Origin: Minisyncoccota bacterium
GTDB lineage: Bacteria; Patescibacteriota; Minisyncoccia; Phycocordibacterales; JABAAK01
Assembly (NCBI GenBank): GCA_965222235.1
Contig: OZ244939.1
Coordinates: forward strand, 248,585-312,584
Reading direction: 5' to 3'
Length of the DNA: 64,000 bases
How positions within the stretch are numbered: the stretch's first letter is position 1; every line of letters begins with the position of its first letter. Under the pieces are notes generated by a model. That model worked only from the letters and a program-made list of their open reading frames with translations. It did not search any database and was not told where the DNA came from. Both the position numbers and the translations under genes were made by a program. Below, piece by piece: positions 6,669 to 45,293 of this stretch.

Positions 6669-6751
6669 ACATATAAGTATAGAATACATACAGCCGGCAT
6701 GAACAGCGATGGTGGATAACCGGCGCCGTACTGTGGTACGCTGTGCGTATT

Positions 6752-15126: not shown

Positions 15127-15127
15127 A

Positions 15128-16018
15128 TTATTCGCATTCTGACACAATAGTTCCCTTCAGTGTGCGCAACTGTTTGAGCGCGCATTCGCCCTGCCGGTCT
15201 TTCGTCAGCACATCCTCCGGCCCCTTACCCGGAGGAACGCCGTGCCAGCGGTAGTCCCGCTCAAACTGCGGTACACCCTTTCCGGGAATTGTGTGGGCAA
15301 TGATGACGACGGGCTGAAACGCCGACTGTGCCTCACCGAACGCGGTATAGAGATCCTGAATACTGTGCCCGTCAACATCAACAACATGCCAGTTGAATGA
15401 TTCAAATTTTTCCCTGAGCGGCTCAAGCGGCATGATGTCGCGGGTGAACCCGTCTATCTGAATCCCGTTCCGGTCCACAACGGCAATAAGATTGTGGGGC
15501 TGCTCCCTGCCGGCGAGCATGACTGCCTCCCAGGTCTGTCCGCAGTTCAGCTCTCCGTCACTCATAAGACAGTAGAAAAAGATATGTGACTGCGGCCGTT
15601 CAATCCGGTCCGCGAGCGCCATACCGACCGCCTGCGAGAGTCCGGAGCCGAGCGGTCCCGAACTCGTCTCTATGCTCGGAAGAAACTCACGATGCGGATG
15701 TCCCTGTAACTTGGTGCCGAATTTTCTGAGTGTTTTCAGCTCTTTTACCGGAAAGTAGCCGGCGTGTGCCATTGTTGAGTAGAGCACCGGACAAATGTGG
15801 CCGTTTGAAAGTATCAGCCGGTCGCGGCTGTCCATGTGCGGATTCTTCGGATCGTACCGCATGACGGCGAAAAAGAGTGTCGCGAACACATCGGCCATGC
15901 CGAGCGGACCGGCGGTGTGCCCCGAACCCGCTTCTATGAGCGATTCAATGAGCGACACACGAATCTGATTTGCCTTTTTTTCAATAACGGCAACCTCTCT
16001 GTCCTGTAAATGCTCCAT
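15128..16018 (-). CDS. Transketolase, N-terminal TPP-binding subunit (split tkt)
   Basis: SGHTAGPLGMADV...GHP...DGELNCGQ TPP-binding motifs. Confidence 0.85.
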   Translation of the reverse strand: MEHLQDREVAVIEKKANQIRVSLIESLIEAGSGHTAGPLGMADVFATLFFAVMRYDPKNPHMDSRDRLILSNGHICPVLYSTMAHAGYFPVKELKTLRKFGTKLQGHPHREFLPSIETSSGPLGSGLSQAVGMALADRIERPQSHIFFYCLMSDGELNCGQTWEAVMLAGREQPHNLIAVVDRNGIQIDGFTRDIMPLEPLREKFESFNWHVVDVDGHSIQDLYTAFGEAQSAFQPVVIIAHTIPGKGVPQFERDYRWHGVPPGKGPEDVLTKDRQGECALKQLRTLKGTIVSECE

Positions 16019-16968: not shown

Positions 16969-17625
16969 TTACAACATGCGCGTCAGGTGAGTGAAATTTT
17001 CCTTCACATCTCCCCGGAAAAGCGCCGAGCCGACGGCAAATTGCGACACGCCGGCTTCAGCAAGCATCGGTAGTGTGTGTGCTGATATGCCGCCATCAAC
17101 GGTGACCGGTACGGCCGGCCGCAGCAGCCGCGCCGCCTCTATAAGCCCGACCGCCTGTTCATCAAACGGTGCGCCCTGCGCGCCGATGTGCCGGATACCC
17201 ATACACTGCACGCCGTCAATCTGGTTGATATATTTTTCAAGATCAGCAAGATTGTCGCCGATGACAATGCCGACGTATATTTCCCTGCCCGCGTCCCGCA
17301 CCTGCTGAATACACTGTTCCATATGCCGGGTGGAGCTGAGATGGATAATGCAGCGCGACACATTTGTTTTAAGGAAGTGTCGCAGCAACCGCTCCGGCGT
17401 GCTGATCATCAGATCTAACTCATACGCAATATGCAAATTATCCAGCCGTCCGATTTCATTCCGCATATCATGTTCCGTAAAGAACGGCCAGGTCGTGTTC
17501 GGCGCATGTATGCCGTCAACAATATCTATCTGCACATATGAGGCGATGTCCGACACGCAGGCAACCGCCTCGGCTATGCCGCCGAATGTCTGCTGCAATA
17601 TCGCGGGAATGATGCGGGGCTGCAT
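16969..17625 (-). CDS. rpe: Ribulose-phosphate 3-epimerase
   Basis: Typical Rpe length and motifs (DIVDGIHAPN...VDGGIS). Confidence 0.8.
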   Translation of the reverse strand: MQPRIIPAILQQTFGGIAEAVACVSDIASYVQIDIVDGIHAPNTTWPFFTEHDMRNEIGRLDNLHIAYELDLMISTPERLLRHFLKTNVSRCIIHLSSTRHMEQCIQQVRDAGREIYVGIVIGDNLADLEKYINQIDGVQCMGIRHIGAQGAPFDEQAVGLIEAARLLRPAVPVTVDGGISAHTLPMLAEAGVSQFAVGSALFRGDVKENFTHLTRML

Positions 17626-17639
17626 ATAGTATCACTGTA

Positions 17640-18080
17640 TCATCTGTCTATCTGTCCAATCCGCCGTATATGACGGTCCTCGGCGGAAAACGGTGTTGAG
17701 AGAAACAGTTCAACCGCTTCCCGCATCTGCGCGTCAGTAAGCAGTCGCGCGCCGATTGAAAGTACATTCGCGTCATTATGCCGCCGTCCGAGAGTGACTA
17801 TCTCCGGATCATGCGCCGGATATACAATTGCCCTGACACCGGGATGACGGTTCGCGACGATGGACTCCCCCTGCCCTGATCCGCCGAACATGATGCCGAC
17901 GGTATCGGAAAATTGCGCCACCCGTTTCGCAAGATCATGCATGTACGCCGGATAGTCATCAACGGGATTCATGGTGTGTGCGCCCACATCCTCAACGGTG
18001 TGCCCCTGCTCCGTGAGCAGGACCTTTATATCCTCCTTCATGGAAAAACCTGCATGATCTGCTGCAAGCACTATCTTCAT
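17640..18080 (-). CDS. rpiB: Ribose-5-phosphate isomerase B
   Basis: MKIVLAADHAGF...GIMFGGSGQGESIVANR. Confidence 0.85.
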   Translation of the reverse strand: MKIVLAADHAGFSMKEDIKVLLTEQGHTVEDVGAHTMNPVDDYPAYMHDLAKRVAQFSDTVGIMFGGSGQGESIVANRHPGVRAIVYPAHDPEIVTLGRRHNDANVLSIGARLLTDAQMREAVELFLSTPFSAEDRHIRRIGQIDR

Positions 18081-19078
18081 ATGCTGTTCCTGGTATGTTC
18101 AATAAGCGACCGGGTATATCCCATTTCATTGTCGTACCACAGGAGTATTTTTATCAACGTCCCGTTTACCACCTTCGTCATACCGAGATCGGCGACTGAA
18201 ACGAACGGCTGACCGATAATATCCGATGAGACAACGGGGGCATCGGTCACGGCAAAGAGCGGGTCGGCAATATTCTTCAGCACTGTATTCACCTCATGCA
18301 CGGATGCGGCTTTCCCGGCAACGCAGGTCAGATCAATAAGCGAGCCGGCAACAATCGGCACTCTGAGTGCGATGCCGTCAAAACTGTTCTCAAGTGATGA
18401 AAGCACCTTGGTGGTGGCGACTGCAGCGCCGGTGGTGGTGGGAATGATATTCATCGCGGCAGCTCTGCCGTAGCGAAGGTTGTTCTTCTTTTTAGTCGGT
18501 CCGTCCACGGTCTGCTGCGATTTAGTGTAGCCGTGCACGGTGGTGAGAATAGCGCTTTCTATGCCGAATGCCTGATCAAGTGCGTCAAGAGGGATGCCCA
18601 CGGCATTGGTTGTACACGATGCGTTGGAGGTAACCGCACATGTTTTTGCCGTATCCGTGTTCAGTCCGACGAGCACGGTCGCTGCCTGCACATTCGCGGG
18701 CGGACTGCCTTTCGCGGGCGCGGTGATGATGGTGTGTCCGGCACCCGCAATATTATGTGCATATGCCTTTTCATAGCTGGTGAACACTCCGGTCGCCTCT
18801 ATGACAACATCAATATTCATGGCGCGCCACGGCAACTCGGTCGGATTCTTCGTCGAGAGCATGGAAATGGTTTTCTTCCCGATCCTGAGCGTATCGCCGT
18901 CCGCGACAACCTCTTCTCCGAATCTTCCGTACACCGTGTCGTACTGCAGCAGATATGCCGCTGTTTCACAGTCCATCAGATCATTGACCGCCACGACTGA
19001 TATATCTTTGCACGCGTGGGCAAGTCGAACATACGCCCGCCCTATTCTCCCGAATCCGTTAATTGCAACCCGCTTCAT
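18077..19078 (-). CDS. gap: Glyceraldehyde-3-phosphate dehydrogenase
   Basis: INGFGRIGR NAD motif and SNASCTTN active-site signature. Confidence 0.9.
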   Translation of the reverse strand: MKRVAINGFGRIGRAYVRLAHACKDISVVAVNDLMDCETAAYLLQYDTVYGRFGEEVVADGDTLRIGKKTISMLSTKNPTELPWRAMNIDVVIEATGVFTSYEKAYAHNIAGAGHTIITAPAKGSPPANVQAATVLVGLNTDTAKTCAVTSNASCTTNAVGIPLDALDQAFGIESAILTTVHGYTKSQQTVDGPTKKKNNLRYGRAAAMNIIPTTTGAAVATTKVLSSLENSFDGIALRVPIVAGSLIDLTCVAGKAASVHEVNTVLKNIADPLFAVTDAPVVSSDIIGQPFVSVADLGMTKVVNGTLIKILLWYDNEMGYTRSLIEHTRNSI

Positions 19079-19132: not shown

Positions 19133-20545
19133 CTACATCAGTTTCTTTTTCAGCAGTTCCTGCACCTTCGCCGGATTCGCTGATCCTTTTGTTTCTTTCA
19201 TAACCTGGCCGACCAAAAATTGAAGTGCGCGCTCCTTGCCGGCACGGTATTCATCAGCCACATCGCCATGTCGTGCCGCAACAGCGGCGACGGCTTCACT
19301 GAGAACGCCCTCATCCGACTGCTGAAAGAGATTTTCTTCCTGAGCGACAGCGCGCGGACTGCCGCCCCGCTCAACAATAATTGCGATAATATCTTTGGCA
19401 CCGCGCGAGGAAATTGTTCCGGTGGTAATAAGTCCGATGAGCTCGGCCATCGCGTCTTCGGTCAGATTGGCAAAGAGGGCATCCCCCTTTGATTCGCTGT
19501 ACCGCATGACATCGGAGAGCAGATAATTCGCCGCAAGACGGGGGGCGTCGGCGTGATTAACGGATGCGGCAACATAATCAAACATATCCGCAAATGCCGT
19601 ATGTTTCACCAGGCGCTCCGCCTGCTCCTCCGGCAGACTGAAATCAGCAATGTAGCGGTCTTTTCTCTGCAGCGGCAGTTCGGGAATGGTTTTTCTGAGC
19701 GAGTCCTCATCCCAGCCCGGCACCTGATCAATGCGGCACGGCGGTATATCCGGCTCCGGCATGTAGCGGTATTCCGCTGATGTTTCCTTCAGTCGTTGAG
19801 AAAATGTTTTTCCGGTATGTTCGTTCCATCCCCGCGTTTCCTGTACCACATTCTCCCCGCTCTCCAGAAGATTCGTCTGTCGCTCAATTTCAAACAGGAT
19901 GGCACCGCACAGTGCTCTGAACGAATTGAGGTTCTTGACTTCCGCTTTGGTGCCGGGCGTACCGGTTGTGCTGACGGAGATATTCGCCTCAACCCGCATC
20001 TCACCCCATTCCATCCTGGCACGCGCAACACCGAGGTACCGAAGTATCAGCTGCAGCATCTCCGCGAACCGTCTCGCCTCTTCCGCATCGTGTATCACCG
20101 GACCGGTGACAAGCTCCATGAGCGGCACGCCGGACCGGTTAAAATCAATGACGGATCCCTGATCCGTGACATCATGGGAGCTCTTTGCGGTATCTTCCTC
20201 AAGATGAATCCGTTCAATGAAAACACCGAGCAGTTCCGCGTTTTTCACCAGCGGATACGGATACTGGCTGATCTGATATCCTTTCGGAATATCGGGATAG
20301 AAATAGTGTTTTCGATCAAATGCAGTGTATGTCGCCAGCTCCCCGCCGAGCGCGGTGCCGATACGCAGCATGTGCTCAACCGCCTTTCTATTGAGAAACG
20401 GCAGAGCGCCCGGATAGCCCATACAGACCGGACAGATGTGGGTGTTAGGCTGCTGCTCATTCGGGTCATTGCGGCAACCGCAGAAAAGTTTGCTTTCGGT
20501 CAACAGTTCCGCATGAATTTCAAGACCTATCGTCGGCGTATACAT
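19133..20545 (-). CDS. gatB: Asp-tRNA(Asn)/Glu-tRNA(Gln) amidotransferase subunit B
   Basis: MYTPTIGLEIHAEL...CPVCMGYPGALP... and C-terminal YqeY-like domain. Confidence 0.9.
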   Translation of the reverse strand: MYTPTIGLEIHAELLTESKLFCGCRNDPNEQQPNTHICPVCMGYPGALPFLNRKAVEHMLRIGTALGGELATYTAFDRKHYFYPDIPKGYQISQYPYPLVKNAELLGVFIERIHLEEDTAKSSHDVTDQGSVIDFNRSGVPLMELVTGPVIHDAEEARRFAEMLQLILRYLGVARARMEWGEMRVEANISVSTTGTPGTKAEVKNLNSFRALCGAILFEIERQTNLLESGENVVQETRGWNEHTGKTFSQRLKETSAEYRYMPEPDIPPCRIDQVPGWDEDSLRKTIPELPLQRKDRYIADFSLPEEQAERLVKHTAFADMFDYVAASVNHADAPRLAANYLLSDVMRYSESKGDALFANLTEDAMAELIGLITTGTISSRGAKDIIAIIVERGGSPRAVAQEENLFQQSDEGVLSEAVAAVAARHGDVADEYRAGKERALQFLVGQVMKETKGSANPAKVQELLKKKLM

Positions 20546-20593
20546 ACAGGCAGTGTAGCAAACATTCCGTCAATACAGAAATCACTCAGACCC

Positions 20594-21737
20594 AAGTTCA
20601 AACAAATAATAGAACACCTGTCATATACCAAGTAATACTGGAGACATATGACAAAAGCAAAGAAAAAGAGACGGGAACCGTTCACCCGTCTGAATATTCA
20701 TGAACGGAGTAGTATTGAAGTGAGATACTGTGCTGACAAGAGATCCCTGCGGGAGATAGCGAAAGAGTTGGGCAGGTCACCGGGAACCATACATCGGGAA
20801 ATAGGGGGAAAACCGAGAAAAGGAGTCGGACGGTACTGCGCGCTGAGGGCACAGCGGGAAGCAGAGAAAAGGATACACACCCGGGGGAGGAAAGGAGTGC
20901 TGACCGACAGAGCACTCCTTGGGTATGTGCGGGAGAAGATGGAGGAAGGATGGTCTCCCGAGCAGGTGAGTATTCGTCTTCCCCGGGAGTTTCCGGAGGA
21001 CACAACCATGCGGGTATCTCATGAGACGATATATACCTTCATATATGCGCAGATTCACCAAAGCGGACACGGTATCGTGAAACCGGGGTATCTAGACTTA
21101 CGGTCTCTTCTGCCGAGAAGAAGGAAGAGACGCATACGGCAAGGAGTGAGAAACACACAGAAAACAGAACGAAGAGCGGCCTTGCCCTCCATTGAGGAGA
21201 GACCGGGGATAGAGGGGGTAATCGGTCATTGGGAAGGTGACACCATGCTCTCAAGGAAAAGCAGCGTTAGGGTAAAGAGTATGAATGAAAAGATGACCGG
21301 TCTGGCATTCTTTGAGAAAACAAAAGACGGTACCGCTGAGTCCTGTGACGCGGCAATCATCAGACGAATGCGCGCTGTCCCTCCGAGATACCGCAAGACC
21401 CTCACCCAGGACAGAGGGGCGGAGAATAGGGGGTACCGCACCGTTGAAAAAGAACTCAGTCTCTCCTGCTACTTCGCCCATCCGTACTGCTCTCATGAAA
21501 GAGGATCAAACGAGAACACCAACGGATTGTTCCGTCGGTGTTTCCCGAAGGGGACTGACTTTGACAAAAGCAATGACCGTGACATTGCCAAGGTTGAGTA
21601 CCTATTGAATACCCGTCCCAGGAAACGCCTTACTGGTCTGACCCCTTACGAGGTATTCTACCGCATGACCGGTGTCAATCTCCAGAGGATGGCATATTAC
21701 AAACTGACAGGTGTTCAATTAGAAGTTTGAATGTAGG
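20594..21737 (+). mobile_element. IS30-family insertion sequence, copy 1 (1144 bp; imperfect ~27-bp terminal inverted repeats TTCAAAC...AACACCTGTCA)
   Basis: 100% identical to 42828..43971. The IRs were found by comparing the left end with the reverse complement of the right end. Confidence 0.85.
20648..21730 (+). CDS. IS30-family DDE transposase (360 aa)
   Basis: N-terminal HTH, HWEGDT and NENTNGLFRRCFPKG..LNTRPRK motifs typical of IS30 transposases. Confidence 0.9.
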   Translation: MTKAKKKRREPFTRLNIHERSSIEVRYCADKRSLREIAKELGRSPGTIHREIGGKPRKGVGRYCALRAQREAEKRIHTRGRKGVLTDRALLGYVREKMEEGWSPEQVSIRLPREFPEDTTMRVSHETIYTFIYAQIHQSGHGIVKPGYLDLRSLLPRRRKRRIRQGVRNTQKTERRAALPSIEERPGIEGVIGHWEGDTMLSRKSSVRVKSMNEKMTGLAFFEKTKDGTAESCDAAIIRRMRAVPPRYRKTLTQDRGAENRGYRTVEKELSLSCYFAHPYCSHERGSNENTNGLFRRCFPKGTDFDKSNDRDIAKVEYLLNTRPRKRLTGLTPYEVFYRMTGVNLQRMAYYKLTGVQLEV

Positions 21738-24878: not shown

Positions 24879-25012
24879 GACTCGTCCCCGCCACTGTTAT
24901 TTCCAAACACCGTCAATGGTATCAAGCGACCGAATTCGACAGCGGAGGCAGGTACACATAAACAACTTTCAACCGTATGATATAGCAAATGTGTACCATC
25001 TTTACACTCCAG

Positions 25013-25096
25013 TGCCCAGGAGAGGACTTGAACCTCCACGGGATTACTCCCATACGCTCCTGAAGCGTACGCGTCTACCAATTCCGCCACCTGGGC
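25013..25096 (-). tRNA. tRNA-Leu (anticodon CAG), type II long variable arm
   Basis: Reverse complement GCCCAGGTGGCGGAATTGGTAGACGCGTACGCTTCAGGAGCGTATGGGAGTAATCCCGTGGAGGTTCAAGTCCTCTCCTGGGCA. Confidence 0.85.
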
Positions 25097-26265: not shown

Positions 26266-27990
26266 ATGAAATTTACTCGCAATCTTAAAGACATGGGAAG
26301 AAATGATACTGCAATCGCGGGCGGAAAAGGATTCTCTCTCGGTAGAATGATTCAAGCCGGCATACCGGTGCCGGATGGTTTCGTGATTCTTTCAACCGTC
26401 TTTGAGCATATTTCAGAAACATCAGGATTAAAATCTGAAATTAAATCAATACTTTATTCTGTAAACAGTAATGATAGTGACACAATCAAATATGCTTCGG
26501 AAAAAATTAGAAAACTTGTATTCAAATCAGAAATTCCCGAAAACATTTCTCATGAAATAATGAGCAATTTTGACCTTCTTCATTCCCAATATGTTGCTGT
26601 ACGATCATCAACCCCCACAGAAGATTCAGCGGATGCGACCTGGGCCGGCATACTTGAGAGCCATCTTGAGACAACAAGAGAAGATTTGTTGGAAAATATA
26701 AAGAAATGCTGGGCATCATTATTCACACATCATGCTATTCAATATGGTTTTGAAAAAGGGTTGGATGAGAAAAATATATCTATTGCGATTGTTATACAAA
26801 AAATGGTGAAAAGTGAAAAGTCCGGAGTTGCTTTTTCTGTTCATCCGGTGACACAAAACAGGGAGCATATGATAATTGAAGCCGGTTCGGGTCTTGGCGA
26901 GGCTGTAGTATCCGGCAAGACTATACCGGATTCCTACATTGTCAGGAGAAAGTCTCTGACAATTGTCAGTAAAAGCATTCATGGGAAGCGGAGTATTCTC
27001 TCTGAAAATGAAACATTGAAACTCTCGGAGATGGTTCTCACTGTTGAAAATCTTTTCGGTTTTCCTGTTGATGTTGAATGGGCATATGAAAAAAGAAAGT
27101 TCTTTATTCTACAGAGCCGCCCCATCACAACACTAACGGAAATAGAGAACCGGATGGTTTTAGTCGGCAAACGAAGAACAGACAAAATGCATGCTGAATT
27201 ACGTATCAAGGGGTGGACAGAGGGATTAAAAAAAGAAATCGGCACCGGTTATAGAAAGATAGTTATAAACTCGGGCGGTGAACATTTTGTAGATTCTGAA
27301 AGTAGGGATGAAATAAATGAATTACTTTCTCAAAAAAGTTTTCAGGATTTTAAGTTTTATTCAGATAAAATGCGTGTATTTAGAGGTGAGAATTTTTCTG
27401 ATTTATTCACATACTTTCTTATAGCCAGACACACTGCTGACGGAATCTATAAAACATGTTCCTCCGAACAACAAAAAGCTATTGAAGAGTGGCGCAACGA
27501 TGAAAATCTCTTTCAGCCACTGGATGAATATATAAAAACAAATCCTGTTAATAAAAGTAAGGAACATTGGAAGTGGGAATTTTATAACGGAAAAATGGTT
27601 CTTACTGAACAAAATGAAAAAAACGTTGATCAAGGCGACAAAGGTGGTTTACTGTCTAAAAAAACACATAAAGAAATAAAAGGTGAGCCGGTGTACGGGG
27701 GTGTGGTTCACGGAACGGTAAAAATTGTTGAAAACTTGGATGACCTTGCAAAAATTACTGAAGGAGATATAGCAGTCGCCCAAATGATGAGCCCTGACTG
27801 TCTTCCCATTATTAAAAAATCCCGGGCAATTATCACGGATGAAGGCGGAATATTAAGTCACACCGCAATTATGGCAAGGGAAATGGAAAAGCCCTGTATT
27901 GTTGGGACCGGAACAGCAACTACAATATTGAAAGATGGGGATCAGATTAAAATTGATGCGGCATCCGGCATGATTCACATCTTGAGCTAA
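26266..27990 (+). CDS. PEP-utilizing phosphotransferase: PPDK-N-type ATP-grasp, unique ~190-aa middle region, C-terminal swivelling phospho-His domain (rifampicin-phosphotransferase-like architecture)
   Basis: N-terminus ...AGGKGFSLGRM...VAVRSSTPTEDSADATWAGILES...FFILQSRPITT. C-terminus GGILSHTAIMAREMEKPCIVG with the catalytic His motif. Confidence 0.7.
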   Translation: MKFTRNLKDMGRNDTAIAGGKGFSLGRMIQAGIPVPDGFVILSTVFEHISETSGLKSEIKSILYSVNSNDSDTIKYASEKIRKLVFKSEIPENISHEIMSNFDLLHSQYVAVRSSTPTEDSADATWAGILESHLETTREDLLENIKKCWASLFTHHAIQYGFEKGLDEKNISIAIVIQKMVKSEKSGVAFSVHPVTQNREHMIIEAGSGLGEAVVSGKTIPDSYIVRRKSLTIVSKSIHGKRSILSENETLKLSEMVLTVENLFGFPVDVEWAYEKRKFFILQSRPITTLTEIENRMVLVGKRRTDKMHAELRIKGWTEGLKKEIGTGYRKIVINSGGEHFVDSESRDEINELLSQKSFQDFKFYSDKMRVFRGENFSDLFTYFLIARHTADGIYKTCSSEQQKAIEEWRNDENLFQPLDEYIKTNPVNKSKEHWKWEFYNGKMVLTEQNEKNVDQGDKGGLLSKKTHKEIKGEPVYGGVVHGTVKIVENLDDLAKITEGDIAVAQMMSPDCLPIIKKSRAIITDEGGILSHTAIMAREMEKPCIVGTGTATTILKDGDQIKIDAASGMIHILS

Positions 27991-31172: not shown

Positions 31173-31641
31173 AGTGTGAAAGCGGGTTAGATAGGCGTAT
31201 GACCTTTGACTCCCTGAGGTCAAACGACCTTCCGAGCACGAACTCATCCTCATCACTATCTGACACTAGAATAAGTTGTAGAGGTGTAGTTACTTTGTGC
31301 CGGCTCTCAAGTGCTTTTAACAAGTAAGGAAGTACACTGATTTCAGACACTATGCATGTAGCACCGCTGTAGGTATACGCCTGAACTGTCCAGGGCAAAT
31401 CATACACTGATCCGCACACCAGCGGAATCCCAGTTAACATAGTGACTGAAAGAATTACAGGTTCTAGGTGTCTCTCGGGCGGCAGAAAACTAATAATTGC
31501 CTCCGGTCGGTTGGTATCTAAAAACAGTTTTAATTCTGGCCAAACCAAATCGTTCACCGAGACAATTTTAAGTGACCCGTCTGATTGTCTCACTGGTATC
31601 AGTTGCGGGACATCAGATTTTACCAACGAGTTACTGCCCAT
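31159..31641 (-). CDS. Hypothetical protein (160 aa) immediately upstream of the adenylating enzyme
   Basis: Its start codon lies inside the conserved 3' UTR shared by the two small peptide genes. Confidence 0.45.
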   Translation of the reverse strand: MGSNSLVKSDVPQLIPVRQSDGSLKIVSVNDLVWPELKLFLDTNRPEAIISFLPPERHLEPVILSVTMLTGIPLVCGSVYDLPWTVQAYTYSGATCIVSEISVLPYLLKALESRHKVTTPLQLILVSDSDEDEFVLGRSFDLRESKVIRLSNPLSHYVSE

Positions 31642-31685
31642 AAAATCAAACTACAAACATTTTTAGATTATCCATTACTTATATA

Positions 31686-31940
31686 CTAAAGGAATCCGCC
31701 GCATCCGGCAAAGAGCACTTCATCTGAATCGTCAGCACTCTCCAAGTACTCAAGGTAATCCATTGTACCGAGTACGTCACACTGTAGACTTGATTGAGCG
31801 ACGGTATCATCGGTGTTAGATGAAGAATATCCCAACAATGGAGCTGTTTGCTCAGCACTTATCCACTGCAAACCAAAAAACCCTAATACCACTACAACAA
31901 AAAATACAATGCACTCCACGATTGTCTTTGTTTTAGTCAT
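31686..31940 (-). CDS. Small secreted/membrane-anchored peptide P1 (84 aa) with conserved acidic Cys-containing C-terminal core
   Basis: N-terminal TM/signal, then a Ser/Thr-rich stretch, then VAQSSLQCDVLGTMDYLEYLESADDSDEVLFAGCGGFL. Paralog of 34354..34614. Confidence 0.55.
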   Translation of the reverse strand: MTKTKTIVECIVFFVVVVLGFFGLQWISAEQTAPLLGYSSSNTDDTVAQSSLQCDVLGTMDYLEYLESADDSDEVLFAGCGGFL

Positions 31941-32506: not shown

Positions 32507-34153
32507 TCACAAGATTCCTTGCCGGCGGATTGTATCGTAGGGAACAGTCTCTAAATTTTCCCGGTCAATTAAAATCCACGGATTGTGTCTTAATGGGTGA
32601 TACTCTACAGCACAAACATTGACCTCGTCCAACACCCGCCGATAAGGTTCCAAGTTAATGGCAATGTCCATGGTAAGCAATGCTGACTTGAGATTATTGT
32701 GCAAACACCGCTGCTTCAATACATACCATTGATAGTAAGGTCTGCAATACCCCATGCGTTCTTCTTCCCACCATTGAACGGATTCAGTGTTATCTTGATC
32801 ACGAATAGAGGTGGTAATGTAACACCAAGGCAACGCCTGAAACATATGCAGACCAAAACGGACTCCTTCACGGGTGAGTCGTGAATCGCCCGGTATGACA
32901 AGAGAGACACTCTGCCCCAGGATTAATAAGGCAGTTAACCCGATGATGATAATTTGATGCAGGCGTTTTGCGGGCCAATGTATAGGACATTCGTGTCCCA
33001 GGAACACAATAAGTAGTATCACCACAGCTACCGCCGGAAAGAAATATTGAATTAATACGACCGAATAAATATGAAATATGAACAATGCGCCGATCGCAAT
33101 ATATCGTAACGGTTTTTTACTCAACAATAACCAAATGATGCCCCCATGTATGGCTATGACTGTTAAGGCAAGTGGTGTGTGCAATTGGTCACCGACGATC
33201 GGGAGTCCCAGGTCAAGTGATTTAAATATTTCCCCCCCCCCCAACCACGAATCGTTCATTTTAGAGCTTAGTGATAAGATATAGGTCATCATAAGCACCC
33301 ATCCCACGGTCATAATTTTATTTGGCAAAAACAGAAGAATGAAATTGATTATGCAAACATAAAACATCACATGGCCATAGTAAAAATCATTATGGGTTAA
33401 CAATCCCACCAGGACTATGTGCCACACTGCAGGTACCAACAGCAGCATGTGTCCCAAAACCAGACGGCGCGAAAGCACGGCAACCAGGGCTCCGGAGAGA
33501 AATAGCATCAACACAATACTCCAGATGTGATATCCGTACTCTGAAAAAATATAATATTCATAACAATTTTGAAACCAGATGGGACAGATGTACTCCCCAA
33601 CCTGCAAAGGAGTGACGATTGATAGGGCTGGGTTTTTCAGGGCAAAAACTAAAAATGCAATTGAAGCGATTAATAGGTACGGTGCCAATTGACTGTTTTT
33701 AAACTCATGTACACTAAACAGTCGTTCGTATCCGGTAAAATATTTACGGAATGGCGACACATTCAACATGACACGTTGACCGATAGTTTTGACAAGTAGC
33801 CACAAACCGACACCCAGTACAAACCAATGAAGGTATGTATGTTCAAGGCTGGTATGTATAGTGGGATCTATGTAGCCCAGAAAAGCGGTGATAATTGACG
33901 GCAGCAAGAGTAACCATGCTGTTGTTGTATAACCACGATACATCTGTATGCCGCTGAGGAGAAACAATAATAACAACCCCGCGTACAAATACATAAAGGA
34001 ATAGCCCACCGGCTGTATAGTCAAATCGGACCCTAATATTGCTTTGCTGACATAGGGGGACTCAAGGATAACGAATGCTGTGATCAATGTCGTCCAATAT
34101 ATGACTGTGCCGGTCTGTTTGGTCAGGATGTGCTTTATGATATACATCGGCAT
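32507..34153 (-). CDS. Hypothetical polytopic membrane protein (548 aa, >10 TM)
   Basis: Highly hydrophobic ORF directly downstream of peptide P2. No family recognised. Confidence 0.5.
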   Translation of the reverse strand: MPMYIIKHILTKQTGTVIYWTTLITAFVILESPYVSKAILGSDLTIQPVGYSFMYLYAGLLLLFLLSGIQMYRGYTTTAWLLLLPSIITAFLGYIDPTIHTSLEHTYLHWFVLGVGLWLLVKTIGQRVMLNVSPFRKYFTGYERLFSVHEFKNSQLAPYLLIASIAFLVFALKNPALSIVTPLQVGEYICPIWFQNCYEYYIFSEYGYHIWSIVLMLFLSGALVAVLSRRLVLGHMLLLVPAVWHIVLVGLLTHNDFYYGHVMFYVCIINFILLFLPNKIMTVGWVLMMTYILSLSSKMNDSWLGGGEIFKSLDLGLPIVGDQLHTPLALTVIAIHGGIIWLLLSKKPLRYIAIGALFIFHIYSVVLIQYFFPAVAVVILLIVFLGHECPIHWPAKRLHQIIIIGLTALLILGQSVSLVIPGDSRLTREGVRFGLHMFQALPWCYITTSIRDQDNTESVQWWEEERMGYCRPYYQWYVLKQRCLHNNLKSALLTMDIAINLEPYRRVLDEVNVCAVEYHPLRHNPWILIDRENLETVPYDTIRRQGIL

Positions 34154-34353
34154 ATCTGTAAAAAGTATTCATGATGGATGACATGTGTACTCCGTGTGTT
34201 TCCGAGGCAGGGTTCGTAATGAGTAATATACAATAGATTCGGTGGATACTGGATAGAATCCGAACATTTCGACAAAAAGTATCGTGACCACACACCAATA
34301 AAATCAAACTACAAACATTTTTAGATTATCCATTGTTTATATACTATCATATA

Positions 34354-34614
34354 TTAAAGGAACCTCCCGCATTCGGCAAAGAGCGCTTCATCTGAATCGT
34401 CAGCACTCCCCAAGTACTCAAGGTAGTCCGTTGTGCCGAGTACGTCACACTGTAGACTTGATTGAGCGACGGTATGTGTATCAGTAGAATCGGTGGATGA
34501 GTTAGAGAATTTGCCAGATCCTGAAAAGGCGGATGTCAACACCAGGAAATATATTGAGCTGATGAAAAATCTTGTAAAAATGAAACGCAAATGATATATA
34601 ACCATGACTACCAA
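34354..34614 (-). CDS. Small secreted/membrane-anchored peptide P2 (paralog of P1)
   Basis: C-terminus VAQSSLQCDVLGTTDYLEYLGSADDSDEALFAECGRFL. The track start is a TTG; the likely ATG start is at 34605. The 3' half of the gene and 45 bp downstream are near-identical to the P1 locus. Confidence 0.55.
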   Translation of the reverse strand: MVVMVIYHLRFIFTRFFISSIYFLVLTSAFSGSGKFSNSSTDSTDTHTVAQSSLQCDVLGTTDYLEYLGSADDSDEALFAECGRFL

Positions 34615-34663: not shown

Positions 34664-35962
34664 TCAGAGCCCGATAACATTGCGCAAACGCTTCTCCTGC
34701 CGGAGACGAAGCTCGGCGTAGAGCAACGGATTCCGCATTGCGAGAATCTGCAGCGCCGCAAGGATGGCATTCTTGGGACTGAGAACGGTGGTAACCGGTG
34801 TCTCGCTCGGCGTACGAAGAGACGACCACACATCCTCGGGAAGTTCCCGCCACGTCGCGGGAACAGTGATTACTGGCACGGTACACTGAGCGGACAGGGT
34901 CGGTCCCGCACCGTTGCTCCTCCCGCAGTATACGATGACCACGGTATCAGGAACCTCTTGAACCAGTCGTCCGATCACCTCATAAGCCGTCACCGGATCC
35001 TTATGAAGCGAACAGGTTACCGTCTGCACACTGCACACCCCGTTCGCATCGTACGCCGCGAGCGCATCCTGAAACGGCTTCAGCTCATCGGATGCTGATG
35101 CCCGCCAAAGAATGATTCGCTGATGCGGCACGGTGAAACGCTCGGTCAGATTGGCTACCAGTCGGTAACTCGTGGTGACGGTATTGAGGTCAACGCCGTC
35201 GCGGTAGAGCTGCTTGTCAAGGTGCCGCTCGTGGTCAACCACCCGCCACGAATCGTTGTCGATCACGTCCGCGAGCACCAACTTGTCCTCCATGTTGGTG
35301 CCGAACTCCACCTTGAAGTCAACGAGCCGTCGCCCGACAATCCGCCACGCCTGCTCCAAAATGAGAAAGGCCTTGATGGCGATTTCGCCCATCCGTTCAA
35401 TATCTCCCGGTGAATTCCGCAGAGGAAAAGCATTAAGAGAACGGAACGGTGCCTGTTGATGGATCGGCCGATTGGGAAGGTATAAATCCGCATGATCCGA
35501 CTCAAAACGAATGAGTGGATCGTCCGTGGGAAGATCAGACCCCTCCCACGTCTTGCCGGAAGTCTTCAGGAAAAACTCCAACAGAAGACGCGGAAACACG
35601 TGACCCTTGTGGAGCCCCGGATGACGCTTGAGGAACGAGCCGTGTGCTTCACGCCGGACGACCACCTCGTAGTGAATCATGTCGCACCGCTCCGAGAGAA
35701 AGCTCGTCTCGTTCAGCTCCTGAATGAACGCGACAGGGAGACGGTCCGACACCTTGAGCAAACGGAACACATTCGATGTGGTGCGGTTCGAAAGTGCCGC
35801 CTTGCCGGTGATAACATCGCGCTTGGCGCCGTCGCCGGCAGTCACGTCGTCCTTGGACTCGATAATCACCTGTCCGGACTTCTCCGTCGCGAAGACTTTC
35901 TTGGTCTTCCCTTCGGTCAACAACTCTCCGGCAACTACACCATTGTTCATTGCACTGGTCAT
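34664..35962 (-). CDS. Bifunctional SAICAR synthetase (PurC) + AIR carboxylase (PurE) fusion, PAICS-like
   Basis: N-terminus GKTKKVFATEKSGQVIIESKDDVTAGDGAKRDVITGKAA (PurC). C-terminus ...VVIVYCGRSNGAGPTLSAQCTVPVITVP... (PurE fold). Strong SD AAGGAGGAAACG before the ATG. Confidence 0.75.
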   Translation of the reverse strand: MTSAMNNGVVAGELLTEGKTKKVFATEKSGQVIIESKDDVTAGDGAKRDVITGKAALSNRTTSNVFRLLKVSDRLPVAFIQELNETSFLSERCDMIHYEVVVRREAHGSFLKRHPGLHKGHVFPRLLLEFFLKTSGKTWEGSDLPTDDPLIRFESDHADLYLPNRPIHQQAPFRSLNAFPLRNSPGDIERMGEIAIKAFLILEQAWRIVGRRLVDFKVEFGTNMEDKLVLADVIDNDSWRVVDHERHLDKQLYRDGVDLNTVTTSYRLVANLTERFTVPHQRIILWRASASDELKPFQDALAAYDANGVCSVQTVTCSLHKDPVTAYEVIGRLVQEVPDTVVIVYCGRSNGAGPTLSAQCTVPVITVPATWRELPEDVWSSLRTPSETPVTTVLSPKNAILAALQILAMRNPLLYAELRLRQEKRLRNVIGL

Positions 35963-36600
35963 CGTTTCCTCCTTCTAAGGAAAAGAACTGGTAATCAATC
36001 CGCCCAATCTCCCACTGAAACGGGAGCAGTTGGATCTGCAATAAATAATACCAGAATTCCGTAAAAACACAACGAATTGATTATCAATAAAACTATAATG
36101 AAAGACAACTGATGGGAAAGCTCACTATTGTGCTTCAGCAACATTCAGATAATATTCATCATCTGTCGTTTGAAACAGACAGGTGCCTTTGCTTTGACTT
36201 GCTTTCCGTTGTCTTTCTCTTGAAGTACACCTTGGCTTTTGTGTTGCCGCGGGGCACCTTTCTCCTTTTTCAAACTGTTTTTTTGAGTTTTAATGCTATT
36301 CTCTATTGGAAACTTGGAAAGAAGAATGTATGGTATATTGCGAAACATAAAAAAACTCATGGAGGAACATTCCGTGAGATGAGACATCAAACGCGAAACA
36401 GAAAGGAGTCCGAGGGATACCATACCGTTTTCGGATTCTCCCATATGACATTAACGGAACGGAAGCCTGTGGCAGTAGTTGGTTCCGGCTCAACGGTGAA
36501 ACTGGGATCAAGGAAAACAGCACGAACGAACGGGGATACCGTGATACCGATACCCTCCGGTGCGGTGAGATACGCTTCGCCGGAGATTTATACTGTCCAG

Positions 36601-36684
36601 TGCCCAGGAGAGGACTTGAACCTCCACAGGATTACTCCTATACGCCCCTCAAGCGTACGCGTCTACCAATTCCGCCACCTGGGC
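36601..36684 (-). tRNA. tRNA-Leu (anticodon GAG)
   Basis: Near-identical to tRNA-Leu(CAG) at 25013..25096, differing by C34G, A38G and a compensatory pair in the variable arm. Confidence 0.85.
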
Positions 36685-38357: not shown

Positions 38358-38888
38358 TTATCCACTCAAGTTCGGCAGTCCTATTTTTCGTAAAGGGAGA
38401 TGATTAAAATAGCAAGAACACCCTCGTATTGAGAGTATGTAATTCAGGACATCTTTATATTCTTCCTTTTTAAACCAATCATTGAGTATATAAATATATT
38501 CAACTTTCACCCTTAACTTTGAAAGCAGTTTTCTGTATTGTTTTACTTTAAAATCACATGTTTGCAATTTTTCATCTGTAGATCCGGATGTTCTTTGAAA
38601 CTTTATTTCTAAAATGAAAAAAGTGTTATTTTTTATCACAAAAATTGCATCATCAGGTAGTAATTTTTTGGTAATATATTTTCTATAATCTATACCCCTA
38701 CCTTTCAAATAGTCATATAGCCCGTGTTTTCTGAAAGATGTCGCAACATACTTTTCTTTGTAATGTATATCAATGTCATTCTTAATGGTGTATCCTTTTT
38801 GTTTTGAAAGGAAAGAAACAAGATCCACCTCTCCTTCAAAATACAAACCTGTCTTTGTGCTCTCGCCTCCTACACCACCGCGCCTCAT
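38358..38888 (-). CDS. Putative type II restriction endonuclease
   Basis: AT-rich small ORF whose ATG overlaps the stop of the upstream DNA methyltransferase (ATGA). No family recognised; the call rests on context. Confidence 0.45.
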   Translation of the reverse strand: MRRGGVGGESTKTGLYFEGEVDLVSFLSKQKGYTIKNDIDIHYKEKYVATSFRKHGLYDYLKGRGIDYRKYITKKLLPDDAIFVIKNNTFFILEIKFQRTSGSTDEKLQTCDFKVKQYRKLLSKLRVKVEYIYILNDWFKKEEYKDVLNYILSIRGCSCYFNHLPLRKIGLPNLSG

Positions 38889-39709
38889 AGTGCCAACTGT
38901 AAGGTCCCCACACAATCATTAAACCTACTTTTGCTTAATTCTAAATATTTTCGCTCTTTGTCAAAGCCGATAAATTTTCTCTTGTGGTTAAAAGCAGCAA
39001 TTCCTGTTGTGGAACTTCCTGCAAATGGATCTAACACAACATCTCCTTCGTTTGTACTCGCTAAAATAATTCTTTCCAACAAGTTAATCGGTTTTTGTGT
39101 CGGGTGTTTTCCGTGTTGTTTTTCATTGTTCCTCGGGGTGTTGATAGACCACACCGATCGCATCTGTTTTTTGGGTGTTTTCATCGTATCCCTGCTCCAA
39201 TCTCCTTCTTTCATAAGGGCATAATTAAACACTTGTTTACTTTTTTTATCTTTCTTTGCCCAAATTAATGTTTCGTGACTCGCAGTAAACATTCTGCAGG
39301 ATAAATTAGGCGAAGCATTCGGTTTGTACCATGCGACATCGTTGAGTATATGGTATCCTTCAAGCTGCAATGCAAAACCGCACTGATAAATAGAGTGATA
39401 AGTGCCGCTAATCCAGATGGTCCCGTTCGGTTTTAACACCCTCTTACAGGCACGGATCCAGTTTCTTTGAAATTCAAAATCTTTTTCTGTCCCCTTACTC
39501 TTATCCCACGATCCTTTGTTTACGCTAACTCTTTTACCTGCATGAACAGAGAAACCGTCATTAGACAAATTATACGGCGGATCTGCAAAAATAAGATCAA
39601 CGGAGTGCTCCGGTGTTTTGTCCAATAAATTTATGCAATCACCCTCATACAGAGTAAAATGAGGTGAATTTTCTTTATGAAAATATGGTTTTATGCCTGA
39701 AAGCCTCAT
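38885..39709 (-). CDS. DNA methyltransferase, beta-class N6-adenine/N4-cytosine (DPPY motif precedes the FxGxG motif)
   Basis: LIFADPPYN (motif IV) followed by C-terminal VLDPFAGSSTTGIAA (motif I). Start at the internal ATG 39709. Confidence 0.75.
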   Translation of the reverse strand: MRLSGIKPYFHKENSPHFTLYEGDCINLLDKTPEHSVDLIFADPPYNLSNDGFSVHAGKRVSVNKGSWDKSKGTEKDFEFQRNWIRACKRVLKPNGTIWISGTYHSIYQCGFALQLEGYHILNDVAWYKPNASPNLSCRMFTASHETLIWAKKDKKSKQVFNYALMKEGDWSRDTMKTPKKQMRSVWSINTPRNNEKQHGKHPTQKPINLLERIILASTNEGDVVLDPFAGSSTTGIAAFNHKRKFIGFDKERKYLELSKSRFNDCVGTLQLAL

Positions 39710-39734
39710 ATATACAGTATATGGCAAATTTTGG

Positions 39735-39760
39735 ATATATAGATTTGAAGGATGTGACAA
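39735..39760 (-). promoter_or_regulatory. Candidate sigma70-like promoter for the methyltransferase-endonuclease operon (TTGTCA ... TATATA)
   Basis: Hexamers read on the minus strand ~25 nt upstream of ATG 39709. The spacer looks slightly short (~14 nt). Confidence 0.3.
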
Positions 39761-39855
39761 TTTGTGCACAATTTCTACGCCAAATCGTCTAAAACTCACT
39801 ATTCTTCTTTGCTTTCTTCTGTAAGATGTTTTATGCCCCCCTCTATCCACTCAAG

Positions 39856-41110: not shown

Positions 41111-42508
41111 CTACATTGACTGTATATCACGCGCACAGGCGAACAATATATCCTCGCATCCGTATCCTGATATGCACTGCACACCCCGCGGCAGCCCGTC
41201 AGTCCGCATCGGCACCGACAGTGCCGGCAGACCGGTCAGATTCGCCTGAAGCGTCAGCCGGTCCTCGGCATACATAGCAAGCGGATCCTGCTTCTCGCCG
41301 GCAATAAACGCCGTATCAGGCGCCGTCGGCAAAAGCAACACCGGCACCTCGTGCAACGCCGTAAGAAACGCCGAGCGCATTGCCCTGCGCGCCGCCATTG
41401 CTTTTTTGTAGTATGCGTCATAGTAGCCGGCAGAGAGCACATAGGTGCCGACGACGATGCGCCGCGTCACCTCATCCCCGAATCCGGCGCTCCGGGTGTT
41501 GATATAGTCAGCCCACAGCGTGTCGCCATCAATATGCAGCCCGTACCGCATGCCGTCAAACCGGGCCAGGTTTGATGATGCCTCGGCAGGCTGAATGATG
41601 TAATATATCGGACCGGCATGCTCCATAACCGGCAATGACACGGTCCGAACGGTATACCCGCAGCTTTTAAGCGAACGTAGTGTTTCGTTAAACGCCGCCA
41701 TGGTTTCCGCCGATACGCCGATCGTCTCAAGACTGTCGGGCACACCGACTATTTTTTCACCGGAACACGAACCTGAATCGGTATAGAAATCAAGCGTACT
41801 GTCATACGCCTCCCCCTCACCGGCTATCACCTGAAATAACAGTGCGGCATCATCAACCGTACGCGCGAGCGGACCGATGACATCAAGTGACGAACCGAGT
41901 GCGATGAGTCCGTGGCGTGATACGGAGCCGTAGGTCGGTTTCAGACCGACCAGCCCGCAGAAACCTGCCGGCTGACGAATGGAGCCGCCGGTGTCCGAGC
42001 CGAGTGCCAGCGGTACCGCGCCCATAGCGACCGCCGCGGCCGATCCCCCCGAGGAACCTCCGGGCACCCGGGTGATATCGTGCGGATTGCGCGTCGGACC
42101 GTACACGGAATGTTCGGTGCTTGATCCCATCGCGAACTCATCCATATTCGTCCGACCGACCAGTACCGCCCCCTGTTCGCGCAACCTGGAGATGACCGCG
42201 GCATCATACGGCGAGATAAACCCCTCCAGTATGTGGGAAGCGGCGGTTGCGGCATGCCCTTTCACACAGATGTTGTCCTTCACTGCGACAGGAATGCCCG
42301 TCAGCGGCTGTGTGCGTCCTTCGGCAATCATCGCATCAGCGATGCACGCGTCCTCATCCGCGGAATCAAAGGTTTCAATGAACGCATTGACGGAGGGGTT
42401 TTTTTCAGTGATGATTCGGCGTGCTTCTGCCAGCAAATCCGCGGCGGATGTTCCGCCGTCCTTCAATGTCCGCTGCATGTCCCGCACTGTTGCCTCCGCG
42501 TACTTCAT
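41111..42508 (-). CDS. gatA: Glu-tRNA(Gln)/Asp-tRNA(Asn) amidotransferase subunit A
   Basis: Amidase signature GGSSGGSAAAVA...GSDTGGSIRQPA. Confidence 0.9.
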   Translation of the reverse strand: MKYAEATVRDMQRTLKDGGTSAADLLAEARRIITEKNPSVNAFIETFDSADEDACIADAMIAEGRTQPLTGIPVAVKDNICVKGHAATAASHILEGFISPYDAAVISRLREQGAVLVGRTNMDEFAMGSSTEHSVYGPTRNPHDITRVPGGSSGGSAAAVAMGAVPLALGSDTGGSIRQPAGFCGLVGLKPTYGSVSRHGLIALGSSLDVIGPLARTVDDAALLFQVIAGEGEAYDSTLDFYTDSGSCSGEKIVGVPDSLETIGVSAETMAAFNETLRSLKSCGYTVRTVSLPVMEHAGPIYYIIQPAEASSNLARFDGMRYGLHIDGDTLWADYINTRSAGFGDEVTRRIVVGTYVLSAGYYDAYYKKAMAARRAMRSAFLTALHEVPVLLLPTAPDTAFIAGEKQDPLAMYAEDRLTLQANLTGLPALSVPMRTDGLPRGVQCISGYGCEDILFACARDIQSM

Positions 42509-42777: not shown

Positions 42778-42827
42778 ATATGCATAATATACCGCAAAAA
42801 TACCGCACACCCAAATAACTACCCCCT

Positions 42828-43971
42828 AAGTTCAAACAAATAATAGAACACCTGTCATATACCAAGTAATACTGGAGACATATGACAAAAGCAAAGAAAA
42901 AGAGACGGGAACCGTTCACCCGTCTGAATATTCATGAACGGAGTAGTATTGAAGTGAGATACTGTGCTGACAAGAGATCCCTGCGGGAGATAGCGAAAGA
43001 GTTGGGCAGGTCACCGGGAACCATACATCGGGAAATAGGGGGAAAACCGAGAAAAGGAGTCGGACGGTACTGCGCGCTGAGGGCACAGCGGGAAGCAGAG
43101 AAAAGGATACACACCCGGGGGAGGAAAGGAGTGCTGACCGACAGAGCACTCCTTGGGTATGTGCGGGAGAAGATGGAGGAAGGATGGTCTCCCGAGCAGG
43201 TGAGTATTCGTCTTCCCCGGGAGTTTCCGGAGGACACAACCATGCGGGTATCTCATGAGACGATATATACCTTCATATATGCGCAGATTCACCAAAGCGG
43301 ACACGGTATCGTGAAACCGGGGTATCTAGACTTACGGTCTCTTCTGCCGAGAAGAAGGAAGAGACGCATACGGCAAGGAGTGAGAAACACACAGAAAACA
43401 GAACGAAGAGCGGCCTTGCCCTCCATTGAGGAGAGACCGGGGATAGAGGGGGTAATCGGTCATTGGGAAGGTGACACCATGCTCTCAAGGAAAAGCAGCG
43501 TTAGGGTAAAGAGTATGAATGAAAAGATGACCGGTCTGGCATTCTTTGAGAAAACAAAAGACGGTACCGCTGAGTCCTGTGACGCGGCAATCATCAGACG
43601 AATGCGCGCTGTCCCTCCGAGATACCGCAAGACCCTCACCCAGGACAGAGGGGCGGAGAATAGGGGGTACCGCACCGTTGAAAAAGAACTCAGTCTCTCC
43701 TGCTACTTCGCCCATCCGTACTGCTCTCATGAAAGAGGATCAAACGAGAACACCAACGGATTGTTCCGTCGGTGTTTCCCGAAGGGGACTGACTTTGACA
43801 AAAGCAATGACCGTGACATTGCCAAGGTTGAGTACCTATTGAATACCCGTCCCAGGAAACGCCTTACTGGTCTGACCCCTTACGAGGTATTCTACCGCAT
43901 GACCGGTGTCAATCTCCAGAGGATGGCATATTACAAACTGACAGGTGTTCAATTAGAAGTTTGAATGTAGG
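42828..43971 (+). mobile_element. IS30-family insertion sequence, copy 2 (identical to copy 1); possible 4-bp CCCT flanking duplication
   Basis: 1144/1144 identity with 20594..21737, same orientation. The flanks read ...cccct|IS|ccctg... Confidence 0.85.
42882..43964 (+). CDS. IS30-family DDE transposase (identical to 20648..21730)
   Basis: Identical 360-aa translation. Confidence 0.9.
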   Translation: MTKAKKKRREPFTRLNIHERSSIEVRYCADKRSLREIAKELGRSPGTIHREIGGKPRKGVGRYCALRAQREAEKRIHTRGRKGVLTDRALLGYVREKMEEGWSPEQVSIRLPREFPEDTTMRVSHETIYTFIYAQIHQSGHGIVKPGYLDLRSLLPRRRKRRIRQGVRNTQKTERRAALPSIEERPGIEGVIGHWEGDTMLSRKSSVRVKSMNEKMTGLAFFEKTKDGTAESCDAAIIRRMRAVPPRYRKTLTQDRGAENRGYRTVEKELSLSCYFAHPYCSHERGSNENTNGLFRRCFPKGTDFDKSNDRDIAKVEYLLNTRPRKRLTGLTPYEVFYRMTGVNLQRMAYYKLTGVQLEV

Positions 43972-44415: not shown

Positions 44416-44646
44416 TTAATGAACACTCTCTGCTATTCCTAGCACTTTGATATTCATCTTCCTCAACCAGTACCAGAGCATTTTGAACATAAAGATTTTT
44501 TTCTGTGTATATGAAATTCTTTTTTCTACCTGAGAGGTCGCCATAACGAGCAACACTTTTGACTTAACGGTGTTGCTCTTGCTGATAACAACCCATCTGT
44601 GACTTCCCTCACTGAAGTCATATACAAACACAGATCCGATACTCAT
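44416..44646 (-). CDS. Small protein (76 aa), candidate toxin partner of the Panacea-domain antitoxin
   Basis: Its start overlaps the PanA stop (ATGA). N-terminal beta-rich segment IGSVFVYDFSEGSHRWVVISKSN..VLLVMATSQ is vaguely MazF/PemK-like. Confidence 0.4.
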   Translation of the reverse strand: MSIGSVFVYDFSEGSHRWVVISKSNTVKSKVLLVMATSQVEKRISYTQKKIFMFKMLWYWLRKMNIKVLGIAESVH

Positions 44647-45293
44647 ATTCGCGCCGCTTCCAAAATTTTCTCTGCCTGCTTATGTTCGATATAAAGATCT
44701 CTCGCCGTTTTAAGATCACACACTCCGAGTATATCTTTATTGTTCCCCGTTGCCGCACTCAACAGTTCTTCCTCGTCTATGTCCTCCCACTTTTCGCTTT
44801 TTTCAAACTTCGCCCCTTCCGGATATATGTGCGTTTTTTCCCAAAACACCCCCCTGCTTTCCGGCTGCTTGAGATCCTTCCTGAATATGTTCCAAACAAA
44901 ATCAAGAACCTCCCGGTCAGTTTCAGACAATTGTTTCATATCCGTTTCTCTCACGGATTCTATTTTCATGCGCGGGCGGTTCCCATCTTTGGAAGGGGTG
45001 TTCGGGAATGCCGTGACCGCAATAAACTCACGCGCATACTTCACCTGTTCCGCCCTGTTTTCGTCATCGTTTGAACAGGACTCAATCAACTCGACCGTGT
45101 TTTTCGCAACCGGTCCCATCTGTTTCGCCTGATATAAATCACCCGTTATGGTCCGCAGGTAGTCGCAAATGTGTTTTTTGTCGGCAAAATACACTAGTTT
45201 GAGCATGTTTGTTTTGTACAGCGGAATACCTTCTTTTTCTGCCCTTGCCGCAAAAAAGCTGAGGACCTGCGTTGCCTTTTTATAATTAAACAT
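44643..45293 (-). CDS. Panacea-domain (DUF4065, SocA/PanA-like) antitoxin
   Basis: LKLVYFADKKHICDYLRTITGDLYQAKQMGPV matches the conserved KLLYFA...GPV core of DUF4065 proteins. Confidence 0.55.
   Translation of the reverse strand: MFNYKKATQVLSFFAARAEKEGIPLYKTNMLKLVYFADKKHICDYLRTITGDLYQAKQMGPVAKNTVELIESCSNDDENRAEQVKYAREFIAVTAFPNTPSKDGNRPRMKIESVRETDMKQLSETDREVLDFVWNIFRKDLKQPESRGVFWEKTHIYPEGAKFEKSEKWEDIDEEELLSAATGNNKDILGVCDLKTARDLYIEHKQAEKILEAARI

Follow-up and report, generated by a model that had tools for sequence, protein, structure and literature searches.

A bacterial PurC-PurE fusion of the PAICS type with a class II signature in a Patescibacterium

By the textbook rule, bacteria have PurK together with a class I PurE, and animals have a class II enzyme. 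In E. coli, the steps from AIR to CAIR and on to SAICAR are spread over three separate genes, encoding PurC, a class I PurE and PurK, and follow the ATP-dependent N5-CAIR route. Fungi and plants have in ADE2 a PurK-PurE fusion, whose PurE-fold domain likewise serves this step; the partner is PurK instead of PurC and its PurE is of class I, making it the opposite solution to a PurC-PurE fusion. Class II enzymes (PAICS and those of Treponema denticola and Archaeoglobus) carboxylate AIR directly, whereas those of class I act as isomerases on N5-CAIR, the product of PurK (PMC10484210, PMC3261824, PMC9376930). One visible difference in the active site is Lys304 of human PAICS, whose place is taken in class I by Arg (R51) (PMC10484210). 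The stand-alone PurE of T. denticola (3RG8/3RGG) is a bacterial precedent for class II, with kinetics cited in PMC9376930.

In this study, we describe a gene from a Patescibacterium in which PurC and PurE are joined in the manner of metazoan PAICS (human, 2H31/6YB8/7ALE; Bombyx mori, 4JA0). A 64-kb stretch of DNA, referred to here as the window, contains the gene and belongs to a contig of 641,294 bp. We propose that it very probably encodes a functional, bifunctional enzyme of the PAICS type, combining a class II AIR carboxylase with a SAICAR synthetase, because of its domain architecture, its homology to PAICS in sequence and predicted fold, its class II signature, the conservation of both sites, the purifying selection acting on it, and the purine operons in which its relatives are found.

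The fusion gene and its predicted fold

The gene is a single ORF without internal stop codons on the minus strand (34664..35962, stop codon included) and encodes 432 amino acids. An earlier note on this DNA had described one 432-aa ORF with PurC at its N-terminus and PurE at its C-terminus, a description with which both the ORF list and Pfam agree, and the motifs that it quoted (GKTKKVF, DDVTAGDGAKRD and CGRSNGAGPTLSA) are present in the ORF. The N-terminal half matches SAICAR_synt (PF01259, E = 3.8e-46, from residue 15) and the C-terminal half matches AIRC/PurE (PF00731, E = 2.9e-17, residues 288-424). From Pfam, NCBIfam and alignments to PAICS and E. coli PurC, the SAICAR synthetase (PurC) domain extends over residues about 12-277 (35132..35929, minus strand), and from PF00731 the PurE-fold (AIR carboxylase) domain over residues about 282-428 (34679..35119, minus strand). 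Identity between the PurC domain and E. coli PurC is 28.6%, and relative to E. coli PurC and PAICS the domain carries two lineage-specific insertions, at residues about 135-146 and 150-185. The NCBIfam purC and purE models match the two halves with scores far below their equivalog cutoffs, and each half is therefore a divergent member of its family; the best match of the PurE type is the generic purE mutase model TIGR01162, at 58 bits against a cutoff of 149.6.

The database gene calls of two homologs (P0001 and P0002) are 428 aa long and begin at Met5 (35948..35950, minus strand), where the alignment of homologs begins as well. Reading the sequence upstream of Met5, we found no Shine-Dalgarno motif at a suitable distance. 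The first ATG, at 35962, has the Shine-Dalgarno sequence AAGGAGG (35968..35974, minus strand, read from the sequence) 5 nt upstream, and motif and ATG are both kept in a 96%-identical homolog (L091); for these reasons we prefer the 432-aa reading, and the start at 35962 is probably the correct one. Further upstream, TTGTCT-17-GATAAT (36080..36108, minus strand) is a weak sigma-70-like promoter candidate, and it is given as a candidate only, the count of such matches near the gene being no higher than in shuffled sequence. Terminator and promoter scans around the gene remained at chance level, and an Rfam scan of the same surroundings, even at E <= 1, found no riboswitch and no other element. 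Given that Gracilibacteria were the closest named match, we also tried the alternative code in which TGA is a sense codon and rejected it, the housekeeping genes being intact under table 11; the nearest homologs of the ThrRS encoded in the window are Patescibacteria of the Kaiserbacteria/Paceibacteria type, with contigs of 0.6-1.1 Mb, which gives an approximate placement of the small-genome host.

The earlier note had likened the domain order and size to those of metazoan PAICS, and indeed full-length PAICS is the top PDB match both by sequence and by predicted fold. In a phmmer search of the PDB, both domains align to full-length Bombyx PAICS (4ja0, E = 6.7e-62) and to full-length human PAICS (2h31, E = 7.5e-57), with stand-alone PurC proteins at about 1e-24 and stand-alone PurE proteins at about 1e-3. 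When the PurE half alone was used as the query, PAICS was matched at 57 bits (E = 1.5e-14), whereas stand-alone PurE proteins came at E = 3e-4 or worse, with at most 24 bits for class I PurE and 21.6 bits (E = 0.0017) for the class II PurE of T. denticola. An AlphaFold model, computed from a 19-sequence alignment of homologs, has a mean pLDDT of 86 and a pTM of 0.88, with a low-confidence loop at residues 375-384. Foldseek aligns this model to PAICS structures over about 430 columns with E-values from 1e-32 to 1e-27; the match to human PAICS 6yb8_A has E = 1.3e-32 and a TM-score of 0.66-0.68 over 430 columns, and that to Bombyx 4ja0 has E = 2e-30. Below PAICS rank PurC structures and then PurE structures, each for its own half, and the PurC half reaches TM-scores of 0.85-0.91, normalised by target length, against solved PurC structures.

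The fusion protein thus resembles metazoan PAICS in domain order, in its similar length and in homology that is collinear over both domains. It differs in belonging to a separate bacterial subfamily, in a PurC domain about 25 residues longer, and in an identity to human PAICS of only 34% by BLASTP, or 38% over trimmed alignment columns. With the T. denticola enzyme it is predicted to share the chemistry, AIR carboxylation without PurK; unlike the fusion, that PurE is not joined to PurC, and its similarity to the PurE domain of the fusion is weak next to that of PAICS.

Class II signature and active sites

To read the class of the PurE half, we aligned it with PAICS and with class I PurE. The catalytic His is followed by the class II Lys in S318-L-H320-K321 (35000..35011, minus strand): the fusion has SLHK and human and Bombyx PAICS have SAHK, whereas the class I enzymes of Acetobacter aceti and E. 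coli have SAHR. The class II '70s loop', G347-R-S-N-G-A-G-P354 (34901..34924, minus strand), reads GRSNGAGP in the fusion and GRSNGLGP in PAICS, as against GGAAHLPG or its equivalent in class I. The earlier note had proposed this class test, and its outcome is class II on both motifs, with neither SAHR nor GGAAHLPG of class I being present. A tblastn comparison of E. coli PurE with the fusion gave no match at E 1e-3. The signature is not peculiar to this protein; among 99 full-length representatives of the family, SxHK and G[RML]SNG[LA]GP dominate, and an Arg after the catalytic His (SGHR) is seen in two of the 99.

The residues listed for human PAICS in PMC9376930 were then mapped onto the fusion protein. 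In the synthetase site, G18, K19, T20, K21, T41, E99, K133, K217, E219, D232, D237, S238, W239, R240, K250 and R254 are identical to human PAICS. Of these, G18-K19-T20-K21 form the ATP-binding loop (35900..35911, minus strand; human G16-K19), which is conserved in 86-88 of 90 bacterial representatives, and the Mg-ligand Asp is D148, aligned to D129 of E. coli PurC. In the carboxylase site, S289, S291, D292, S318, H320, K321 and G347-G351 are likewise identical. The differences from human PAICS are confined to non-catalytic shell positions (human to fusion: M272 to R287, G273 to A288, T275 to A290, A302 to L319, V328 to Y345, A329 to C346, L335 to A352 and D133 to S135). A comparison of the gene with its 96%-identical homolog gives a dN/dS of 0.27, indicating purifying selection. 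Judged by this ratio and by the conserved residues, both active sites look functional and constrained.

If the fusion works as human PAICS does, its PurE domain would add CO2 directly to AIR to yield CAIR, without ATP and without N5-CAIR supplied by PurK, with H320 acting as general base and with K321, S289 and S291 at the phosphate, the roles given for the human enzyme (PMC9376930). The PurC domain would then phosphorylate CAIR with ATP/Mg2+ and condense it with aspartate to give SAICAR. By analogy with PAICS, we infer these enzyme activities, independence from PurK, and an octamer with channelling.

Relatives, purine operons and eukaryotic PAICS

The earlier note had implied that such a fusion is rare in bacteria, and in this it did not hold: many bacterial phyla possess such a fusion, and IMG already lists its homologs as a bifunctional enzyme, under the name 'phosphoribosylaminoimidazole carboxylase / phosphoribosylaminoimidazole-succinocarboxamide synthase'. 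A search of 5.8 billion protein sequences returned 3,621 matches at E <= 0.001, and the best 120 of these all contain both Pfam domains, nearly all being 420-450 aa long; clustering at 50% leaves 424 representatives at E <= 1e-30. Scanning the GTDB species, each represented by one genome, we obtained at least 586 confirmed relatives, of which the best 80 are all full length. These best 80 include Patescibacteria (labelled Gracilibacteria, Staskawicz-, Vogel-, Giovannoni- and Taylorbacteria, Paceibacterota and Saccharibacteria), many Xanthobacteraceae/Pseudolabrys/Rhodoplanes, Verrucomicrobiota (Chthoniobacter, Akkermansiaceae and Spartobacteria), Dependentiae, Polyangiaceae, Tepidisphaerales and gammaproteobacterial MAGs. 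Among the matches listed, the closest relatives of the fusion protein are other Patescibacteria. A literature search found no paper that describes or characterises bacterial PurC-PurE fusions, and no biochemistry for any bacterial member. The fusion gene is an ordinary, well-conserved member of a large and little-studied bacterial family.

The same subfamily also contains PurC-only proteins, about 60 of the 150 representatives listed. One of them, a stand-alone PurC of 299 aa (P0200; L089, 4001-4900), is 52% identical to the N-terminal half of the fusion and has its gene in an S10/spc cluster of ribosomal-protein genes, where it lies on the opposite strand between those for S19 and L2; at this locus, the one examined, no PurE gene was found nearby, class II included.

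We compared 13 E. coli Pur and Gua proteins by tblastn with the window and with 80 homolog loci. A gammaproteobacterial MAG (L072, 1722-11263) has a compact operon of purF-purN-purD-purM-purL-fusion, without purK or purE, and is the natural setting in which bacterial purine synthesis independent of PurK could be tested most clearly. In a member of the Dependentiae (L071), the fusion occurs with guaA, purB, purA, purM and purL; in three Patescibacteria loci (L005, L052 and L003) the arrangement is fusion-purB(-purH, purM), and in L092 the stop of purB and the start of the fusion, which follows it, are 2 bp apart. No purK and no class I purE were found in the 80 homolog loci (about 1.3 Mb, within 10 kb of the homologs), nor in the 64-kb window, where an HMM scan of 70 ORFs gave no ATP-grasp match. 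Purine operons lacking purK and purE are the pattern to be expected if carboxylation and ligation are both supplied by the fusion, without PurK. Within the window, no other pur gene was found and the fusion gene is solitary, and in the 96%-identical relative it also stands alone, in a different neighbourhood.

To place the family relative to eukaryotic PAICS, we reconstructed a neighbour-joining tree of 67 taxa with 200 bootstraps. The eukaryotes, sampled as vertebrates, insects, a sponge and a protist transcript, form a monophyletic group with 96% support, and they fall inside a clade supported at 100% together with bacterial fusions from Armatimonadota, Eremiobacterota, Binatota, Acidobacteriota and Woykebacteria, which we call subfamily B. 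The bacterial fusions of subfamily B share with the fusion studied here their architecture, class II motifs and bacterial hosts; they differ from it in being 42-47% identical to human PAICS and in forming the 100% clade with eukaryotes. The window protein falls outside this clade, in what we call subfamily A, with other Patescibacteria, Dependentiae, Verrucomicrobiota and Xanthobacteraceae. The order of branches inside the 100% clade and the deeper branching are not resolved in the NJ trees, and NJ trees of the single domains, rooted on E. coli PurC and PurE, have backbone bootstraps near 0 and so decide neither the root nor the direction of any transfer between bacteria and eukaryotes.

Neighbourhood, alternative explanations and significance

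The fusion gene is flanked by a gene for a 548-aa membrane protein, immediately downstream, and by tRNA-Leu(gag). Both lie, with the fusion gene, in a 21-kb segment of mosaic GC content bracketed by a directly repeated element of 1,148 bp (20591-21737 and 42824-43971), whose two copies are 99.9% identical and each encode a 360-aa transposase-like protein with an N-terminal HTH_38, in which Pfam finds no catalytic domain. The segment parts gatB (19133-20545) from gatA (41111-42508). Its low-GC genes (0.38-0.45, with the genome at about 0.55) look horizontally acquired; they encode a PPDK_N/PEP-utilizer protein (26266-27990), the 548-aa polytopic membrane protein, which has no Pfam match (32507-34153), and an N6_N4 DNA methylase (38358-39850) adjoining a PD-(D/E)XK nuclease-like ORF, with which it likely forms a restriction-modification pair. 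The membrane-protein gene is itself bracketed by a 181-bp direct repeat of 88% identity (31637-31807 and 34295-34475). Over 89 nt, a tRNA-Leu(CAG) at 25012-25096 shares 95.5% identity with the tRNA-Leu(GAG) at 36600-36684, a similarity suggesting that a gene was duplicated recently and an anticodon then changed. We considered a recent acquisition of the fusion gene together with the IS-bracketed segment and rejected it; the segment itself is clearly mosaic, but the core-like GC of the gene rules against such an event.

Elsewhere in the window, a transketolase is split (14143-16018) into an N-terminal gene (15128-16018) and a C-terminal gene (14143-15147), and near it lie genes for ribulose-phosphate 3-epimerase (16969-17625) and GAPDH (18077-19078), together a pentose-phosphate/glycolysis cluster and a possible source of ribose-5-P for PRPP. 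A 795-aa VirD4/TrwB-like ATPase (T4SS coupling protein/HerA; 60071-62458) and a SocA/Panacea antitoxin-like protein (44643-45293) are possible mobile-element or defence cargo. The TMEM43 family is best known from eukaryotic nuclear-envelope proteins, and a 421-aa protein matching it (PF07787, E = 2.9e-38) is encoded at 5580-6845; with its listed boundaries, the ORF overlaps at its 5' end a tRNA-Ser on the plus strand (6752-6843).

Several other explanations of the fusion gene have to be weighed. The earlier note had named a frameshift or an assembly artefact as what would undo its reading, and a union of separate purC and purE genes by frameshift, sequencing error or chimeric assembly is hardly conceivable: both Pfam domains occur at similar length in the best 120 of more than 3,600 homologs, 80 full-length loci come from independent genomes, and the 96%-identical homolog, from a separate assembly, is collinear codon for codon with zero indels. 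The inter-domain junction is kept in 19 aligned homologs from independent assemblies, with F276, P279, Q281 and W286 invariant, and an artefactual join is therefore ruled out. That the PurE half joined to PurC is of class I (an N5-CAIR mutase), dependent on a PurK encoded elsewhere, would be consistent with TIGR01162 being the best PurE-type model, albeit far below its cutoff, and with a purK search that covered 64 kb of the 641-kb contig; the Lys after the catalytic His and the PAICS-like GRSNGAGP loop, the 57 bits of the PurE half to PAICS as against 24 or fewer to any class I PurE, and the relatives' operons with fusion and without purK make it very unlikely. Somewhat less improbable, though still unlikely, is a host-dependent Patescibacterium without the other steps of de novo purine synthesis, in which the gene would persist as a remnant or be put to another use, e.g. 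on scavenged intermediates. The absence of other pur genes from the window and the isolated position of the gene, here and in its 96% relative, would fit this explanation, but bacterial pur genes are commonly dispersed, so that a lone gene is weak evidence; moreover, both active sites are intact and under purifying selection, and in other Patescibacteria the fusion is accompanied by purB, purH and purM. CPR genomes often lack nucleotide synthesis, and one survey (PMC11608272) scored the de novo purine module as complete in only about 32% of them, a share that also makes a purine enzyme in this host plausible.

A recent acquisition of the gene from a eukaryote seems to us extremely improbable. 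The top PDB matches are indeed metazoan PAICS and the gene lies inside the mosaic segment between the nearly identical 1.1-kb repeats; however, its product is only 34-38% identical to human PAICS, its nearest relatives are other Patescibacteria, and its GC content of 0.57 is that of core genes (0.53-0.59), the foreign-looking genes being its low-GC neighbours, which are as low as 0.38. The position of the fusion protein in subfamily A, outside the 100% clade of eukaryotes and other bacteria, together with this core-like GC, therefore argues against a recent eukaryotic import. The bifunctional, PAICS-type reading remains the one that we favour.

The family corrects a common simplification, in that class II PAICS-type fusions are not confined to animals; numerous bacterial phyla have them, often in purine operons with neither purK nor purE. 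Hence, in pathway reconstructions of CPR/Patescibacteria, an absent purK or purE should not count as a gap, and the finding bears on PurK and class I PurE as selective antibacterial targets. It bears as well on the evolutionary origin of animal PAICS, a question of origin or exchange that comes from the family as a whole and not from this locus. As a tentative scenario, possible but short of probable, we suggest that the class II PurC-PurE fusion is bacterial in origin, that eukaryotic PAICS derives from, or was exchanged with, subfamily B as an already-fused gene, and that subfamily A is a second old bacterial lineage. If true, PurK-independent, CO2-dependent purine synthesis would be common in the Patescibacteria, Verrucomicrobiota, Xanthobacteraceae and Dependentiae of subfamily A, which would undercut the textbook rule that sets PurK and class I PurE in bacteria against class II in animals, and would make PurE/PurK a weaker universal antibacterial target.
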